Below are positions 24,287 to 31,494 of a stretch of 64,000 bases of DNA, in pieces (positions within the stretch are counted from its first letter, which is position 1; the number at the start of each line of letters is the position of its first letter). The DNA is from Nitrosopumilus sp. GTDB lineage: Archaea > Thermoproteota > Nitrososphaeria > Nitrososphaerales > Nitrosopumilaceae. The position numbers and the translations under genes were made by a program. Below the pieces are notes generated by a model. It did no database searches. It had not been told where the DNA came from and was given only the letters and a program-made list of their open reading frames with translations. Location: contig QOOS01000005.1 in the NCBI GenBank assembly GCA_003331425.1, positions 22,144 through 86,143 of the forward strand, in the 5' to 3' direction.

Positions 24287-26356
24287 ATGGCAACTGAATT
24301 AATGGGATTTGAAATTACAAGTGCATGGTTAATCTGGATGCTTCCATTTGCTGCAGCATTAATTATGCCAGGTATTGGAAAATTATCTCAAAATGCAACA
24401 AAGTATGTTGCAGTTGGATTTGCTCTAATGAGTGCTGTGTCTGCAGCATCCTTAGTCCCTCTTGCATTAGAAGCAGGTGAAGTTCATAGTCAAATAATGT
24501 GGATTGAAGCACTTGGAATTAAAGCTGGTGTACTAGCAGATCCTCTTTCAATTATAATGGCAAATGTTGTTGCTTGGATTTCCTTCTTGATTATGATTTA
24601 CAGTACTGGATATATGAAAGGCGATAAAGACATTACAAGATTCTGGTTCTGGATGATGTTCTTTATTGGTTCAATGCAATTAATTGTATTATCTGACAAC
24701 TTACTTCAAGTATTCTTTGGTTGGGAGGGTGTAGGACTTGCATCTTATGCTCTGATCAGCTTTTGGTATCGTGATAAAAAGAAAGATCATGTTGGTACTG
24801 AAGGACGTACTGTTCTTGGAATGTTAGATTACTATTCACCAACACACGCTGGTATGAAGGCATTCATCATGACAAAAGTTGGAGATGTAATGATGATTGC
24901 TGGTATGCTTTTGATATTCTTGTTTGCAGGTACATTTGGATTTAAAGAATTAATGGGTGACACTGATTGGGCAACTGCAATGGCTGCTCAAGGATTGTTA
25001 GTTCCTGCATTTGTTTTACTATTTGGTGGTGCAATGGGTAAATCTGCACAATTCCCATTAAATGAATGGTTGTTAGAAGCAATGACTGGACCTACTGCAG
25101 TATCTGCATTAATTCACGCTGCTACAATGGTTAAAGCAGGTGTCTTCTTGGTTGCAAGAATTGGTCCACTTGTATTTGCTTTAGGTGCTGCAGGAATTTT
25201 AGCAGATCAATTCTTTGAAATTGTTGCTTGGGTCGGTGCAATTACTGCATTATTGTTAGCAACACAAGGTATGGTTAATCCAGAAATTAAGAAAGTCTTA
25301 GCATATTCTACAGGTTCTCAAATTGGTTACATGATGATGGCTTTAGGTGTGGCAGGATTATCTCATCAATATGTTGATGGTTATACTGCAGGATTTTTCC
25401 ACTTAATTTCTCACGCAATGTTCAAGGCTTCATTATTCATGGCAGCAGGTTCTTTACTGCATATTGTTGGCTCTCGATTTATGACTGACATGGGTGGTCT
25501 GAGAAAGCATATGAAGAAAACATATGCATTCATGTGGGCCGCAGGTCTTGGTTTGATGGGAGCACCATTTATCACAACAGGTTTCTGGAGTAAAGATGCA
25601 ATCTTTGCAGCAGTATATGAATCTGGAAACGAATGGGCATTACCATTATTCATCATCGCCGTTTTAACTGCTATAATTACAGCATTCTATACCACAAGAA
25701 TGATTGGTTTGGTATTCTTTGGTAAGAAGAGTAAACATATTGAAAAGATGGAAGAGGAAGGACATCATATTCATGAAGCATCAGTATCTATGTGGGTCCC
25801 ATATGGCATTCTTGCAGTACTTACAATTGGTATCGGTATTATTGGATTATCTGCAGAAGAAGGATTACATCATACGTTTGAATATTATCTTAAAAACTCA
25901 TTTGGAATTTATAGTTCACATGCAGCAGCAGATGAATCCTCAATATTGCCAGAATTCTTACAAGGACTTAATCCAGTTGCATTAGGTGCATCCTTAGTAG
26001 CATTTGCTACTGGTATTGGATTAGGTTACATCTTTTACATTGGAAGATGGGTTGATCCTGTTAAATTTGTAAATTCAAATATTTTCTTTTATGCAATTCA
26101 CAAGCTTTTCTTAAACAGATGGTATCTTAACGCAATTGTCTATTGGTGCTTTGTTACAACACCATTATGGTTGGCTAGAGGCGTTTCAAGATACTTTGAG
26201 AAAACAGCAATTGATTATGGTATGAATGACGGCGTTCAAAAAGCCGCTAGTTGGGGTGCTAAAGTTATTCAAGGAACCCAAACCGGTGTTTCACAATCGT
26301 ATCTATTTGTATTTGGAGCAGGATTATTATTTGTAGTTCTGATATTGTTGATGTAG
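24287..26356 (+). CDS. nuoL: NADH-quinone oxidoreductase subunit L
   Basis: GWEGVG, GKSAQFPL..WLLEAMTGPTAVSALIHAATMVKAG, HAMFKA; long C-terminal helix. Confidence 0.96.
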   Translation: MATELMGFEITSAWLIWMLPFAAALIMPGIGKLSQNATKYVAVGFALMSAVSAASLVPLALEAGEVHSQIMWIEALGIKAGVLADPLSIIMANVVAWISFLIMIYSTGYMKGDKDITRFWFWMMFFIGSMQLIVLSDNLLQVFFGWEGVGLASYALISFWYRDKKKDHVGTEGRTVLGMLDYYSPTHAGMKAFIMTKVGDVMMIAGMLLIFLFAGTFGFKELMGDTDWATAMAAQGLLVPAFVLLFGGAMGKSAQFPLNEWLLEAMTGPTAVSALIHAATMVKAGVFLVARIGPLVFALGAAGILADQFFEIVAWVGAITALLLATQGMVNPEIKKVLAYSTGSQIGYMMMALGVAGLSHQYVDGYTAGFFHLISHAMFKASLFMAAGSLLHIVGSRFMTDMGGLRKHMKKTYAFMWAAGLGLMGAPFITTGFWSKDAIFAAVYESGNEWALPLFIIAVLTAIITAFYTTRMIGLVFFGKKSKHIEKMEEEGHHIHEASVSMWVPYGILAVLTIGIGIIGLSAEEGLHHTFEYYLKNSFGIYSSHAAADESSILPEFLQGLNPVALGASLVAFATGIGLGYIFYIGRWVDPVKFVNSNIFFYAIHKLFLNRWYLNAIVYWCFVTTPLWLARGVSRYFEKTAIDYGMNDGVQKAASWGAKVIQGTQTGVSQSYLFVFGAGLLFVVLILLM

Positions 26357-26369
26357 GAGATTTGATGAC

Positions 26370-27854
26370 ATGTTAGAAATTACTTCAACTCCTCTTGTAA
26401 TAATCGGTATATTGGGTACCGTTGGTATTCTACTTCCAATAATTAGTATTGCACGAAAAGAACAAGGTTCTAACACATTTTATGCCATTATTGCATTTGC
26501 AGCATTAATCGTATCTATGGGATATGTTGGATATCAATTCCTAGAAGAAAATGTGTCTCCGTCTGCTCTGTTTGCTGAAGATGTAGTTGTTGATGATGCA
26601 TTTGGTGGTTTCTTTGCAATTGCCATGTTGATAGTTGCTTTGTTCACTACTGTTGGCTCCTTTAATTACATGAGAAAACATAACTCTCCAGCTGTTTACT
26701 ATTCTCTAATTTTACTTGCAACTATTGGTATGGTTCTAGTTGCCTACTCAACTGATCTTGTAATGTTATTTGTTGCATGGGAACTAATGAGTATTCCAAC
26801 ATACATTTTGGTTGGATTTAGGAAAAAGAACCCAAGCTCAAATGAAGCTGCTTTGAAATATTTCTTGTTTGGTGCATTATCTTCAGCAATTATTGTTTAT
26901 GGTATTTCACTTGCATACGGATTAACTGGTTCTACAAATATTGGCGAAGTCATTCAAGGTTATTCCACACTTGATCCATCAATGCTTCCACTAGCGTTAT
27001 TATCAGTAGGATTGTTTATTGCAGGATTTGGATTCAAGATGGGATTAGTTCCATTCCACCAATGGCTTCCAGATACCTATGAAGGTGCACCTGCACCAAT
27101 TACTGCACTTCTTGCAGCAGCAACCAAAAAAGCCGGATTTGCTGCAACAATTAGAATTGTAATTTTGGGAATGGTGGTACTGCATCTTGATTGGACTTTA
27201 GCCCTTGGTATAATTGCAGTTATGACAATGACTATTGGTAATATTGCAGCAATTATGCAAAAGAATATTTCAAGAATGTTAGCATATTCTAGTATTGCAC
27301 ATGCCGGTTACATTTTGATTGGACTTGCAGTTGCTCCACATAGTTCTCTAGGTTTACAAGGTTCATTGTATCAGATAATGAATCATGCAGTTATGAAAGG
27401 TGCTGCATTTATTGCAATTGCAGGAATTGTAACAACTCTTGCAGTTACTCATATTGATAAATTAAAAGGACTTGGAAGACGAATGCCTGTAACTGCATTA
27501 GGTCTGGTAATTGCATTATTTGCACTCGCTGGTGTTCCTCCACTTTCTGGATTCTGGAGTAAATTGATGCTATTTGGAAGTGCATTAGATGCTGGTACTG
27601 CATTATGGTGGGCCCCATGGCTTGCAATTGCAGGTGTATTAAACAGTGCATTGTCATTAGCTTACTATGGTTGGTTAACAAGGAAAATGTACTTTGAAGG
27701 TGAAACTGAAAAGAGAGTTATTGAACCAAGATCTGTTATGGCAATTATGATCATCTCAACAGTCTTCTTGGTAGGATTCGGTGTTTATCCAGAACCATTA
27801 ATTAAATTTGTAGAACTTGCAACACCAGTACTTAGTTTAGGTTCTATGCCTTAA
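26370..27854 (+). CDS. nuoN: NADH-quinone oxidoreductase subunit N
   Basis: EAALKYF, FKMGLVPFHQWLPDTYEGAP, RMLAYSSIAHAG, GVPPLSGF. Confidence 0.96.
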   Translation: MLEITSTPLVIIGILGTVGILLPIISIARKEQGSNTFYAIIAFAALIVSMGYVGYQFLEENVSPSALFAEDVVVDDAFGGFFAIAMLIVALFTTVGSFNYMRKHNSPAVYYSLILLATIGMVLVAYSTDLVMLFVAWELMSIPTYILVGFRKKNPSSNEAALKYFLFGALSSAIIVYGISLAYGLTGSTNIGEVIQGYSTLDPSMLPLALLSVGLFIAGFGFKMGLVPFHQWLPDTYEGAPAPITALLAAATKKAGFAATIRIVILGMVVLHLDWTLALGIIAVMTMTIGNIAAIMQKNISRMLAYSSIAHAGYILIGLAVAPHSSLGLQGSLYQIMNHAVMKGAAFIAIAGIVTTLAVTHIDKLKGLGRRMPVTALGLVIALFALAGVPPLSGFWSKLMLFGSALDAGTALWWAPWLAIAGVLNSALSLAYYGWLTRKMYFEGETEKRVIEPRSVMAIMIISTVFLVGFGVYPEPLIKFVELATPVLSLGSMP

Positions 27855-28695
27855 ATGAAGTAAATTTAATTAATTCTTCTAAATTCATTTTTGCTTCGTT
27901 ATGTGGAATTTTTCTCAAAAATGATCTGGCCTTCTCAGAATATTCTTTCAACAATTCTTCCATTTTGTTAAAACCATCTCTTGGATCAACACTTTTCTTA
28001 ATTAGTAAATTAAATAATTTTTCTTCATTTTTCCAATCTAGTAAATCATCTCTTATTTGATATGCAATTCCAAGATTTTTTCCATATCCTGTTAATGCTT
28101 CAATCTCTTCTTCAGTTCCACCGGCTACTATTCCTCCGATTCTTGCTGCAACTTCAAATGCGGTTGCAGTTTTGTATTCTATCACTTTCAAGTAATCATC
28201 AAATGTAATGTCTCCACTTTCTTCTAATCTTCCTTCAATAATTTCTCCTTCACTCATTAGCATTGCAGTAGTTGCTAAATCTTTTGTAATTCTTGCATTA
28301 TCCAATCTTGATGATATTGCAAGAATTAATCCTAAAACAAAATCTCCTGTTAAGACACTCGTATTGTAACCATATTTTACATGAAAAGGGTCTTTTTGTC
28401 TTCTCATCGTTTCATCGTCTATGATGTCATCATGAATGATTGATTCCATGTGTAAAAATTCTACAGCACATGATGCTGCCAATACATTTTCATCTATTTT
28501 TCCTATACTCTCTGCAGATAAACTCAAAATTATTGGTCTAATTCTTTTTCCGCCTTCTAATGAATATTTTAGAGGTTCAATAAATTCAGATTCTGAGTAT
28601 AGTGCAAGTTCTTTATCCAAAGCAAGATCAATTTTTTTAATATATTCCCCATATGTCTCTAGTAGAGGATTAATTTCGATATTTTTCCTGTCCAA
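27844..28695 (-). CDS. Polyprenyl diphosphate synthase (probably longer-chain, quinone side chain)
   Basis: GGKRIRP, HDDIIDD..RR (FARM), YKT, QIRDDLLD (SARM); no aromatic residue at -5 of FARM. Confidence 0.88.
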   Translation of the reverse strand: MDRKNIEINPLLETYGEYIKKIDLALDKELALYSESEFIEPLKYSLEGGKRIRPIILSLSAESIGKIDENVLAASCAVEFLHMESIIHDDIIDDETMRRQKDPFHVKYGYNTSVLTGDFVLGLILAISSRLDNARITKDLATTAMLMSEGEIIEGRLEESGDITFDDYLKVIEYKTATAFEVAARIGGIVAGGTEEEIEALTGYGKNLGIAYQIRDDLLDWKNEEKLFNLLIKKSVDPRDGFNKMEELLKEYSEKARSFLRKIPHNEAKMNLEELIKFTSFKA

Positions 28696-28735
28696 GATAA
28701 TTGATCAAAACCCCTCTTCATTAGTAATTAAATCT

Positions 28736-28814
28736 TGGTGCTCCAGCCGGGATTTGAACCCGGGATCACTGCCTTGAAAGGGCAGTATGCTTGACCGGAC
28801 TACACCACTGGAAC
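28736..28814 (-). tRNA. tRNA-Glu(UUC)
   Basis: Acceptor GTTCCAG/CTGGAGC, anticodon arm CTGCC-CTTTCAA-GGCAG, GGTTCAAATCC, CCA encoded. Confidence 0.96.
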
Positions 28815-28895
28815 CCAAAGAATTTTTTTATTTAGATCATAAAATCTTTTGGTACACAACAAAGATTTTTGTATTGGAAAATTTAGACAAGAATT

Positions 28896-29528
28896 ATGAA
28901 TGTAATCCAAAGAATTGATAAAATTATTGAAGAAAGAAGCCTTCTAAAACACCCATTTTATGAAATGTGGTCTGACGGTAAATTAACTCAAGAGTCATTA
29001 GCTGGATATTCAAAAGAATATTTCCAACTTGTAAAAGCTGTTCCTGAATTTATGGCACCAATTATTGAAAAAGCACCTGATTCTGTAGTTTCAGAGCTAG
29101 TTGATAATCAACAAGAAGAATCTGATCACATTAAACCTTGGATTAGTTTTGCAGGAGAACTTGGAATTTCTGAAAATGAATTAATTCCATATTCTGGATT
29201 AGAAAAAACTAATCAAGCTGTATCTGATTTGGCTGAATTAATGAACACTTTTGATAGTGGTGCATGTGCAATGTATGCATTTGAAAAAGAAATTCCAAAA
29301 ATTAGTCAAACAAAACTAGATGGATTATCTGAATTCTATCAAATTACAACTGATAAAGCAACTGAATATTTCAAACTCCATACTGAGGCTGATATTAGAC
29401 ATGCAGCATCTTGGAGAAATATCATTGAAAAATCCAATGCTAATACAAGTGACCTAATTGAAATTGCTGAAAAATCTGTATCAGCACAAAATTTGTTACT
29501 TGATAGTTGTTATGAAGAATACTGTTAA
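28896..29528 (+). CDS. CADD/CT610-like heme-oxygenase-like dimetal oxidase (TenA/PqqC superfamily), putative p-aminobenzoate synthase
   Basis: LLKHPFY..W..G.LT, EE..H, Y.FE..IP.I...K..GL, YF..H.EAD.RH match the CADD pattern. Confidence 0.8.
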   Translation: MNVIQRIDKIIEERSLLKHPFYEMWSDGKLTQESLAGYSKEYFQLVKAVPEFMAPIIEKAPDSVVSELVDNQQEESDHIKPWISFAGELGISENELIPYSGLEKTNQAVSDLAELMNTFDSGACAMYAFEKEIPKISQTKLDGLSEFYQITTDKATEYFKLHTEADIRHAASWRNIIEKSNANTSDLIEIAEKSVSAQNLLLDSCYEEYC

Positions 29529-29569
29529 TCTCATAACATTTTATACCTCAGAAAATTTTTGTTATTTTA

Positions 29570-29643
29570 GGGCCCGTAACTCAGCTTGGTAGAGTAACCG
29601 GCTCATAACCGGTGAGCCAAGGGATCGAAGCCCTTCGGGCCCA
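29570..29643 (+). tRNA. tRNA with CAU anticodon, probably tRNA-Ile2 (agmatidine-modified) rather than Met
   Basis: Acceptor GGGCCCG/CGGGCCC with A73, anticodon arm ACCGG-CTCATAA-CCGGT; lacks initiator A1:U72 and three G:C pairs; GGGCCC acceptor resembles archaeal Ile2 (isotype is inference). Confidence 0.85.
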
Positions 29644-30373: not shown

Positions 30374-30411
30374 TACATTGGATTTATTTTGGTTTGTATT
30401 TAGTATCTATT

Positions 30412-31494
30412 ATGCCTGAAATTTGGTTAAATTATGGGATTACAGACGTTGTTTTGGATATAAAGGCCGAGAATTTAGAGCAAAAAATTGATTCGGACGG
30501 CAAAATTCTGGATGATCAAGCAATTACGGAGAAACTCAATACTCTGGATTTATCAAAACCCATGGAACTAGTAGTTTTACATAACTCCAAATCGATTCTC
30601 AAAATTATTACAACTTTATTCACTCTATGTGAACAAAAATCTAAACCATTTCCAAAAATTTTGACTGACAAAAAAATCCTAAATTTAGTTAAATCTGGTT
30701 TACCTGAAGGTAGTTCAATCAATGAATTTGATGATGTTGAAATTAAAAATTCAAATCTTGTTTTTATGGGAGAAATGGGATTTGATGGTCTATTTGGATA
30801 TGAAACTGTTGCAACTCGGTTAATCAAAAAATTTGGAGAAGAATCTATGCTCTCAGCTTATGCTAAGAGACAAAGTAATCTTCCAACACCTGGACAATAT
30901 ACAGAAAGTTTAACCGAGGCAAAAAAATTTGCAGACAATTTTGAGATACAGGCAATTGAAATTATTGCAAATTCCGAAGGAATACTTGACTTTACAATTG
31001 CTCATCCTTCAAAAACACTTTCTACTACAAAAACTCTAGAATCAAATTCAATTAAAGATGTTGGTGAGCACAAAACAATAATCATGAGTACTGGTAAAGA
31101 TGCAAGTAACGATACATTGGGAAATTCTTTATCGTCCCTTTGGAATTGTTCAAATGCTATCAAAAAAGATGGGTTAGCAATTTTAGTTGCTGAATGCAAA
31201 AGTGGTTTAGGTTCAGATGCTATTCAACAATATATCGAAGATAGACTGACACTTGAACAATTAAGAAATCCTACAAAATACATTAATGGAATGGAAGATT
31301 TACTTTACCTTTCTGAAATACAAAAAAATTTTCAAATTGGTTTGGTCTCAATTTTACCTGAATTTTATGCAAAAAAACTTGATATGATTTCTTTACCTGG
31401 AATAAAATATTCTATGGATTATATTTTAAAAACACAGGGTGCAAGACAAAAAGTTACAGTAGTTGCAGATGGTGCTAGACTCTTTCTAAGGTAA
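30412..31494 (+). CDS. Degenerate LarA (lactate racemase)-superfamily-like protein
   Basis: N-terminal MPEIWLNYG..V.LDI..ENL and C-terminal AIKKDGLAILVAECKSGLGS resemble LarA; ATG 30412 preferred. Confidence 0.55.
   Translation: MPEIWLNYGITDVVLDIKAENLEQKIDSDGKILDDQAITEKLNTLDLSKPMELVVLHNSKSILKIITTLFTLCEQKSKPFPKILTDKKILNLVKSGLPEGSSINEFDDVEIKNSNLVFMGEMGFDGLFGYETVATRLIKKFGEESMLSAYAKRQSNLPTPGQYTESLTEAKKFADNFEIQAIEIIANSEGILDFTIAHPSKTLSTTKTLESNSIKDVGEHKTIIMSTGKDASNDTLGNSLSSLWNCSNAIKKDGLAILVAECKSGLGSDAIQQYIEDRLTLEQLRNPTKYINGMEDLLYLSEIQKNFQIGLVSILPEFYAKKLDMISLPGIKYSMDYILKTQGARQKVTVVADGARLFLR

Follow-up and report, generated by a model that had tools for sequence, protein, structure and literature searches.

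The 64,000-nucleotide stretch of Nitrosopumilus sp. DNA analyzed here (contig QOOS01000005.1 of assembly GCA_003331425.1, positions 22,144 to 86,143; hereafter the window) contains a gene at positions 28896-29528 whose 210-residue product we propose is a 4-aminobenzoate (pABA) synthase of the CADD/PabS family of heme-oxygenase-like dimetal oxygenases (HDOs). We consider it probable that this protein makes pABA by a self-sacrificing, O2-dependent reaction and so feeds dihydropteroate synthase (DHPS), and the candidate is most likely the enzyme that supplies the missing pABA step in the ammonia-oxidizing archaea (AOA). Self-sacrificing pABA synthases have been described in “select” or “diverse” bacteria, namely Chlamydia, Wolbachia, Rickettsia, Chloroflexi, Sphingomonas, and Nitrosomonas (PMC11965152). 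A first-pass annotation of the window, made from the letters and their translations, had already recognized a CADD-type candidate here, and that core reading is upheld by the family hidden Markov model (HMM), by sequence similarity and fold, by residue conservation, by the gap in pABA synthesis, and by the separation from PqqC and TenA, all of which agree. Homology, fold, conservation, pathway gap, and distribution were computed, and from them we infer the activity, the metal pair, and the downstream cofactor. The source genome is of Nitrosopumilus type (1.24 Mb in 16 contigs, 96.6% complete).

The protein matches the NCBIfam model TIGR04305 (“CADD family putative folate metabolism protein”) with an E-value of 1e-47 over profile positions 2-211 of 212, at 162.5 bits against a curated cut-off of 200 bits, a shortfall to which we return below. 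Its best sequence matches in the PDB are 9pj4 (E 1e-31), 1rcw (E 2e-30), and 8va9 (E 2.5e-30), the last two being CT610 of Chlamydia trachomatis (CtCADD); 9pj4 and 8va9 are entitled “4-aminobenzoate synthase” and 1rcw “CT610”, and 9pj4 contains the peptides of the Nitrosomonas europaea enzyme NePabS reported in PMC11965152. The AlphaFold2 model, built with 48 homologues (pLDDT 98.2, pTM 0.93), finds CtCADD at all of the first four Foldseek ranks, with TM scores of 0.93-0.94, root-mean-square deviations (rmsd) of 1.4-1.5 Å, and 30% identity. Judged by this model, the candidate closely resembles CADD/PabS, the single-use enzyme of bacteria, in structure.

At the superfamily level the protein falls in TENA/THI-4/PQQC (Pfam PF03070, 52 bits) and in the “iron-containing redox enzyme” superfamily, and its archaeal homologues are publicly named “iron-containing redox enzyme family protein” or, by JGI, “pyrroloquinoline-quinone synthase”. 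The PF03070 match and the JGI label would fit a PqqC or a TenA-type thiaminase II, an identity that we regard as very improbable and as effectively refuted by the profile scores, the ranking of PDB and fold matches, the lack of PqqE, and the complete six-ligand dimetal site. Specifically, the PqqC equivalog model TIGR02111 gives 36.6 bits against a cut-off of 240, the best PqqC match in the PDB sequence search has an E-value of 2e-4 versus 2e-30 for CADD, and PqqC, which is the next Foldseek match after CtCADD, superimposes with TM 0.85, rmsd 2.9 Å, and 17% identity versus TM 0.93, 1.4 Å, and 30% for CADD. PqqE was not found in the genome (27.6 bits against a cut-off of 381). For TenA the Pfam match is at the superfamily level only, and TenA structures rank under CADD with 12-16% identity and rmsd of about 3 Å. 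The lower Foldseek ranks as a whole (PqqC, TenA, UndA, and BesC) have TM of about 0.8, rmsd of about 3 Å, and 12-18% identity, and FlcD and HrmI are also listed. Hence, where the first-pass annotation had held that clustering with TenA or PqqC would speak against it, the HMM, PDB, and Foldseek comparisons all favor CADD. A search of the genome with PF03070 and PF14518 returned the candidate as its sole match, making it the only gene of the HDO/TenA superfamily there. The name “pyrroloquinoline-quinone synthase” is wrongly applied to these proteins, a widespread PqqC mis-annotation that the CADD-type assignment corrects.

Residue equivalences were taken from an HMMER alignment to 1rcw and a MAFFT alignment of 112 family representatives (Table 1). 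In the HMMER alignment, M1 of the query stands opposite M6 of CADD, the residue established as the CADD N-terminus by mass spectrometry (PMC4161248). The residues that the first-pass annotation had named (Y22, Y38, Y42, E74, E75, H78, F129, E130, K140, H162, D166, and H169) are all found at those positions, and its alignment to CADD holds in the alignment to 1rcw, including Y22 = Y27, K140 = K152, and Phe129 = Y141; the pairing of Y158 with Y170 and the relay Trp, W82, extend that list. The metal ligand that it had given as E74/75 resolves to E75 and not E74, column 75 being Glu in 111 of the 112 representatives and column 74 either E or D. By alignment to CADD all six dimetal ligands are present (E75, H78, E130, H162, D166, and H169), as are all residues that proved essential in published experiments. 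The roles assigned to these residues in the bacterial enzymes (PMC9522330; bioRxiv 10.1101/2022.08.01.502304; PMC11965152) include those of a Tyr27-type side chain that is cut away and becomes the pABA ring (PMC9522330, PMC11965152) and of a Lys152/Lys159-type amino donor (PMC11965152; bioRxiv 10.1101/2022.08.01.502304).

Table 1. Candidate gene, predicted functional residues, and flanking tRNA genes (positions in the window)
Feature	Position	Strand	Equivalents, predicted role, and basis
Candidate pABA synthase gene (210 aa, CADD/PabS-family heme-oxygenase-like dimetal oxygenase)	28896..29528	+	Open reading frame, TIGR04305, PDB, AlphaFold2, Foldseek
Tyr22 codon	28959..28961	+	= CADD Tyr27 = NePabS Tyr25; predicted sacrificial ring donor; HPFY motif
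Tyr38 and Tyr42	29007..29021	+	Tyr38 = CADD Tyr43 = NePabS Tyr41 (essential); Tyr42 = CADD Tyr47 = NePabS Tyr45 (radical relay)
E75-x2-H78, then Trp82	29118..29141	+	Putative ligands = CADD E81...H88; relay Trp82 = NePabS Trp99
Phe129 and Glu130	29280..29285	+	Phe129 = CADD Tyr141 = NePabS Phe148 (metal selectivity); putative bridging ligand Glu130 = CADD Glu142
Lys140 codon	29313..29315	+	= CADD Lys152 = NePabS Lys159; proposed amino-group donor
Tyr158; His162, Asp166, His169	29367..29402	+	Tyr158 = CADD Tyr170 = NePabS Phe177 (metal selectivity); putative ligands = CADD H174, D178, H181
tRNA-Glu(UUC)	28736..28814	-	ARAGORN; upstream intergenic, flanking only, no part of the enzyme
tRNA-Met(CAU)	29570..29643	+	ARAGORN; 42 bp past the stop codon of the candidate, flanking only

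Conservation among the archaeal proteins follows the same residues. The archaeal alignment comprises 132 homologues (120 Nitrosopumilus clusters, six genomes that represent two further AOA families, and five cluster representatives that are more distant) that diverge down to 42% identity, and 35 of the 210 positions are invariant in it, among them H19, Y22, W25, Y38, Y42, E75, H78, W82, E130, Y158, H162, D166, and H169. The position of Tyr22 is Tyr in 132 of 132 archaeal homologues and in 110 of the 112 family representatives, while that of Lys140 is Lys in 131 of 132 and 109 of 112, respectively. One metagenomic family representative on a long branch, P0191 (219 aa), keeps the Tyr of the HPFY motif and the Lys and has Asn at the equivalents of both H78 and H162; going by these substitutions it is a possible metal-free pseudoenzyme.

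We propose, by homology with the bacterial enzymes, that the dimetal center formed by the six ligands would activate O2 and that the oxidizing equivalent would pass via the aromatic residues Y158, W82, Y42, and Y38 to Tyr22. The Tyr22 side chain would then be severed from the backbone, leaving Gly, and be oxidized to the carboxylate with both oxygens coming from O2, and Lys140 would give up its amino group to become aminoadipate. The enzyme would thus be a single-turnover one, and its product pABA would be used by the DHPS encoded beside an MptE-type HPPK to give a folate-type cofactor. As for the metals, the single exchange F177Y shifts the preference of NePabS from Fe/Fe to Mn/Fe, and the F148Y variant is cambialistic (PMC11965152). 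In the archaeal homologues the 177/170 position is Tyr in 132 of 132 and the 148/141 position is Phe in 127 of 132, Nitrosopumilus having Phe. Phe129 with Tyr158 reproduces the pairing in the NePabS F177Y variant, which makes Mn/Fe the likelier guess for the cofactor, and this analogy suggests that the archaeal clade may use Mn/Fe.

A need for pABA in these organisms is indicated by physiology. Nitrososphaera viennensis keeps growing when transferred repeatedly without vitamins, and trimethoprim inhibits it only if vitamins are withheld (PMC11897584), from which it follows that AOA must make a folate-type cofactor, including its pABA moiety, de novo; in a paper on the exometabolome of N. maritimus, 4-aminobenzoic acid appears solely as a medium supplement. 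The genome studied here encodes a DHPS (192 bits, above the bacterial-type equivalog cut-off of 162.6) whose gene is divergently adjacent to that of the MptE-type HPPK (6-hydroxymethylpterin diphosphokinase), and it also encodes FolD and a MetH-type pterin-binding domain. PabC had no match among the class-IV aminotransferases of the genome: both pass the IlvE cut-offs and lie far under the PabC models.

The status of PabB requires more care. No chorismate-binding enzyme was found in the assembly of this genome, and we dismiss that absence as evidence, since the trp operon falls in a contig gap and the absence is an assembly artefact: trpB is cut at the end of contig C4 (34329-34937), trpA lies on another contig (C16:39023-39820), and trpE, trpG, trpD, and trpC are missing, with contig C13 also involved. 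The relatives are informative in this respect, as they have exactly one chorismate-binding gene; a closed genome from the genus shows this gene to be trpE, located within a trpEGDCBA operon. Across the class, PabB above the cut-off occurs in 0 of 251 Nitrososphaeria genomes, including the lineages that lack the candidate gene. The absence of pabABC, which the first-pass annotation had put forward as a check, therefore stands for PabC and, by way of relatives and the class as a whole, for PabB, but the PabB part does not discriminate between lineages with and without the candidate.

The gene is concentrated in the ammonia-oxidizer families. Within the genus, 18 of 18 sampled genomes carry a homologue; for the class Nitrososphaeria the count is 202 of 251 genomes, with 156/163, 30/32, 8/8, and 4/4 in the ammonia-oxidizer families f1, f14, f9, and f4, respectively. 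Searches of family f10, which belongs to the same order, came back empty (0 of 2 genomes, one of them closed, 100% complete, and 1.5 Mb in size), and the remaining families of class Nitrososphaeria mostly gave no homologue either. Two unpublished genomes (G132 and G226) count among the positives in these class tallies, and the picture is the same without them. A gene that is near-universal in the ammonia-oxidizer families and mostly not found elsewhere in the class fits an essential function that requires O2. Neither the candidate gene nor PabB was found above cut-off in family f10, in the small-genome genus g32, or in most of families f15-f23, so that another route to pABA, or salvage, must operate in those lineages.

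Two database entries among the homologues stand apart. The homologue in one closed genome from the genus (G002:C1:226025-226784) appears to be split by an in-frame TAG into a 58-residue N-terminal piece and a piece that matches profile positions 10-211, for which a pseudogene, a frameshift, and a sequencing error are all possible explanations. A Nitrosopumilus-type homologue with 80% identity also occurs on CBDHDT010000193.1, a 4.55-Mb contig labeled as a metagenome-assembled genome of Ekhidna sp. (Bacteroidota), which is probably a chimeric or mislabeled assembly.

A quick maximum-likelihood tree of 120 sequences, midpoint-rooted without a PqqC or TenA outgroup and with support from the SH-like approximate likelihood ratio test (SH-aLRT), places every AOA sequence in one clade (SH-aLRT 96) nested in a group of 21 rows with a short loop (SH-aLRT 95). 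The NePabS-like representatives lie in the opposite half of the tree from the archaeal clade. CT610 and NE1434 themselves are outside the tree; the NePabS-like representatives, P0192 and P0205, were recognized by short peptide motifs only, and no clear CADD representative was found by motif among the family representatives. The CADD/PabS family is also widespread in many bacteria (PMC11965152). The first-pass annotation had suggested a route shared by archaeal and bacterial ammonia oxidizers: the two do belong to one family, but given their placement in different halves of the tree and the breadth of the family the sharing does not look specific to ammonia oxidizers.

Several observations weigh against the proposed function. 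The TIGR04305 score is below the curated cut-off, which means that NCBI curators would not assign the family name automatically, and that 200-bit cut-off is exceeded in 0 of 251 Nitrososphaeria genomes, where the top score is 190 bits. The candidate is also distant from the characterized enzymes, with about 30% identity to them, and the Glu-His spacing is E-x2-H in the candidate and its clade versus E-x6-H in CADD and most family members, the loop being four residues shorter; in the AlphaFold2 model a helix (62-77) stops just ahead of H78 and the next helix (79-88) follows. A spacing of this kind is reminiscent of the ExxH ligands of UndA (Glu101/His104). Folate genes are absent from the neighborhood of the candidate, which consists of nuoL/nuoN, a polyprenyl synthase, two tRNAs, pyrE, and a LarA-like gene, and none stands beside the homologue in six other distant AOA genomes. 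For this genome (96.6% complete) the absence of pabB rests on relatives, and lineages of the same class without the candidate gene are likewise without PabB, which implies another archaeal route to pABA that could serve AOA too. Finally, canonical FolC and dihydrofolate reductase (DHFR) were not found in the genome, which leaves the proposed pathway only partly traced to its end product.

The shortfall in the TIGR04305 score, the distinct subclade with its shortened ligand loop, and the second route that must exist in the class where both the gene and PabB are lacking are what would be expected if the protein were a dimetal oxidase of the CADD lineage acting on a free small-molecule substrate or forming another product (4-hydroxybenzoate or another aromatic), with AOA obtaining pABA by the route of their gene-less relatives. 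The great diversity of HDO catalysis, represented in the Foldseek list by UndA, BesC, FlcD, and HrmI, points the same way. We nevertheless think such an enzyme unlikely here. The consumed Tyr and Lys lie about 14 Å from the metals in CADD (PMC9522330), and the strict retention of Tyr22 and Lys140 at that distance is hard to explain for an enzyme with a free substrate, since such an enzyme would have no evident use for them. Conservation also extends to the essential Tyr38 and the relay residues, the fold matches CtCADD at 1.4 Å, and the adjacent genes suggest no natural-product or catabolic pathway.

The missing FolC and DHFR bear instead on the fate of pABA, which might be made by the candidate but for a non-folate cofactor, for example a methanopterin-like pterin or a different molecule that contains an arylamine. 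Many archaea use pABA in methanopterin synthesis. However, the genome gave no match above cut-off to RFAP synthase, which catalyzes the committed step of the arylamine branch toward methanopterin (18 bits against a cut-off of 113.5), and the DHPS that passes the bacterial-type cut-off, FolD, the MetH-type pterin-binding domain, and the inhibition of N. viennensis by trimethoprim unless vitamins are supplied (PMC11897584) also disfavor this destination, which we hold to be quite improbable. The lack of FolC may have another explanation. Two CofE-like genes (F420_ligase) lie outside the window, at C9:16342-16977 (locus L112, 1396-2172, - strand) and C14:12988-13611 (locus L111). One encodes a true CofE (273 bits, cut-off 180.65), whereas the other scores 162 bits, under the CofE cut-off, and is better matched by TIGR04132 (“putative folate metabolism gamma-glutamate ligase”; 110 versus 85 bits). 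In Chlamydia FolC is replaced by FolC2 (PMC4161248), and by analogy the second ligase may be a FolC2-like folate glutamate ligase that could stand in for FolC. We retain pABA synthesis for a folate-type cofactor as the proposed role of the candidate.

The gene has an ATG start and a TAA stop, and only three in-frame sense codons lie upstream of the start, in a window that is AT-rich (about 32% GC). Farther upstream are nuoL/nuoN and the polyprenyl synthase, and farther downstream are pyrE, the LarA-like gene, and an M50 protease. Positions 24287-29528 of the window share with a genome of AOA family f14 (G180:C1:902400-915000) the order nuoL, nuoN, polyprenyl synthase (-), CADD homologue (+), which is not retained in the remaining distant AOA genomes examined. 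The LarA-like protein (30394-31494, +) has weak C-terminal matches to nickel-pincer racemase (43 bits against a cut-off of 500). Metatranscriptome contigs from four runs in three studies cover the open reading frame at sequence identity, a 619-nt contig corresponding to 28946-29564 with zero differences, and the intergenic region 28844-28930 has near-zero coverage in all four runs. This coverage is a weak hint, compatible with transcription of the candidate gene; it is neither proof of it nor a measure of expression rank.

A targeted full-text search of the searchable library found no literature link between AOA and CADD-type pABA synthesis; the string “CADD” in one AOA paper is part of a family name, CADDZS01, and not the enzyme. 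If our proposal is correct, metabolic models of Nitrosopumilus and of most other AOA, organisms central to the nitrogen cycles of sea and soil, would gain the pABA step that they lack; folate synthesis in AOA would depend strictly on O2 and carry a stoichiometric cost in protein; and the CADD/PabS family would extend to the Archaea. The archaeal enzymes would also offer a natural Phe/Tyr variant for probing the published rules of Mn/Fe versus Fe/Fe selection. A broader picture, to which we give somewhat less than an even chance, is that throughout the AOA every folate pABA moiety costs one 210-residue protein in an O2-dependent reaction, that the short-loop clade, probably a Mn/Fe one, goes back to a single acquisition close to the group's origin, and that the CofE-like ligase replaces FolC.

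The known systems with which the candidate can be compared differ in how much they share with it. PqqC and TenA share the heme-oxygenase-like superfamily (PF03070), but the candidate scores far under the cut-offs of both families, has a dimetal site, and comes from a genome in which no PQQ (pyrroloquinoline quinone) pathway was found. TenA is not known to have a dimetal site and works with a metal-free active site and a catalytic Cys; PqqC likewise lacks a dimetal site (PMC4161248). UndA, BesC, SznF, and other HDOs with free substrates resemble the candidate in fold and in the architecture of the dimetal ligands, but at TM of about 0.8 and 17-18% identity, and they bind small molecules and are without the Tyr27/Lys152 pair.

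The essence of the comparison lies with the two characterized self-sacrificing enzymes. CtCADD (CT610; PDB 1rcw, 8va9, and 8vag), a Mn/Fe self-sacrificing 4-aminobenzoate synthase, has the same seven-helix heme-oxygenase-like fold as the candidate and the same N-terminus, and shares with it the six ligands, the equivalents of Tyr27 and Lys152, Tyr43, Tyr47, the relay Trp, and Tyr at the Tyr170 position. It differs in that the candidate has E-x2-H in place of E-x6-H, Phe129 in place of Tyr141, and a sub-cut-off TIGR04305 score, and in that the candidate gene lies outside a folate cluster in an archaeal host, where a role in host apoptosis is not expected. Indeed, linkage to folate genes is seen in Chlamydia and Wolbachia, and neither in Nitrosomonas nor for the candidate. 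The Fe/Fe enzyme NePabS (NE1434; PMC11965152) is the best sequence match (9pj4), and the equivalents of its Tyr25, Tyr41, Tyr45, Trp99, and Lys159, together with Phe at the 148 position, are kept in the candidate. Its host, too, is an aerobic ammonia oxidizer without pabABC, and its gene is not clustered with folate biosynthesis genes, ne1434 adjoining shmT/glyA (PMC11965152). Unlike NePabS, the candidate has Tyr158 where NePabS has Phe177, a shorter ligand loop with no long insertion, and a place in a different half of the tree. Hence, by its alignments and its place in the tree, the candidate is a new archaeal member, in a divergent short-loop subclade, of a known enzyme family.

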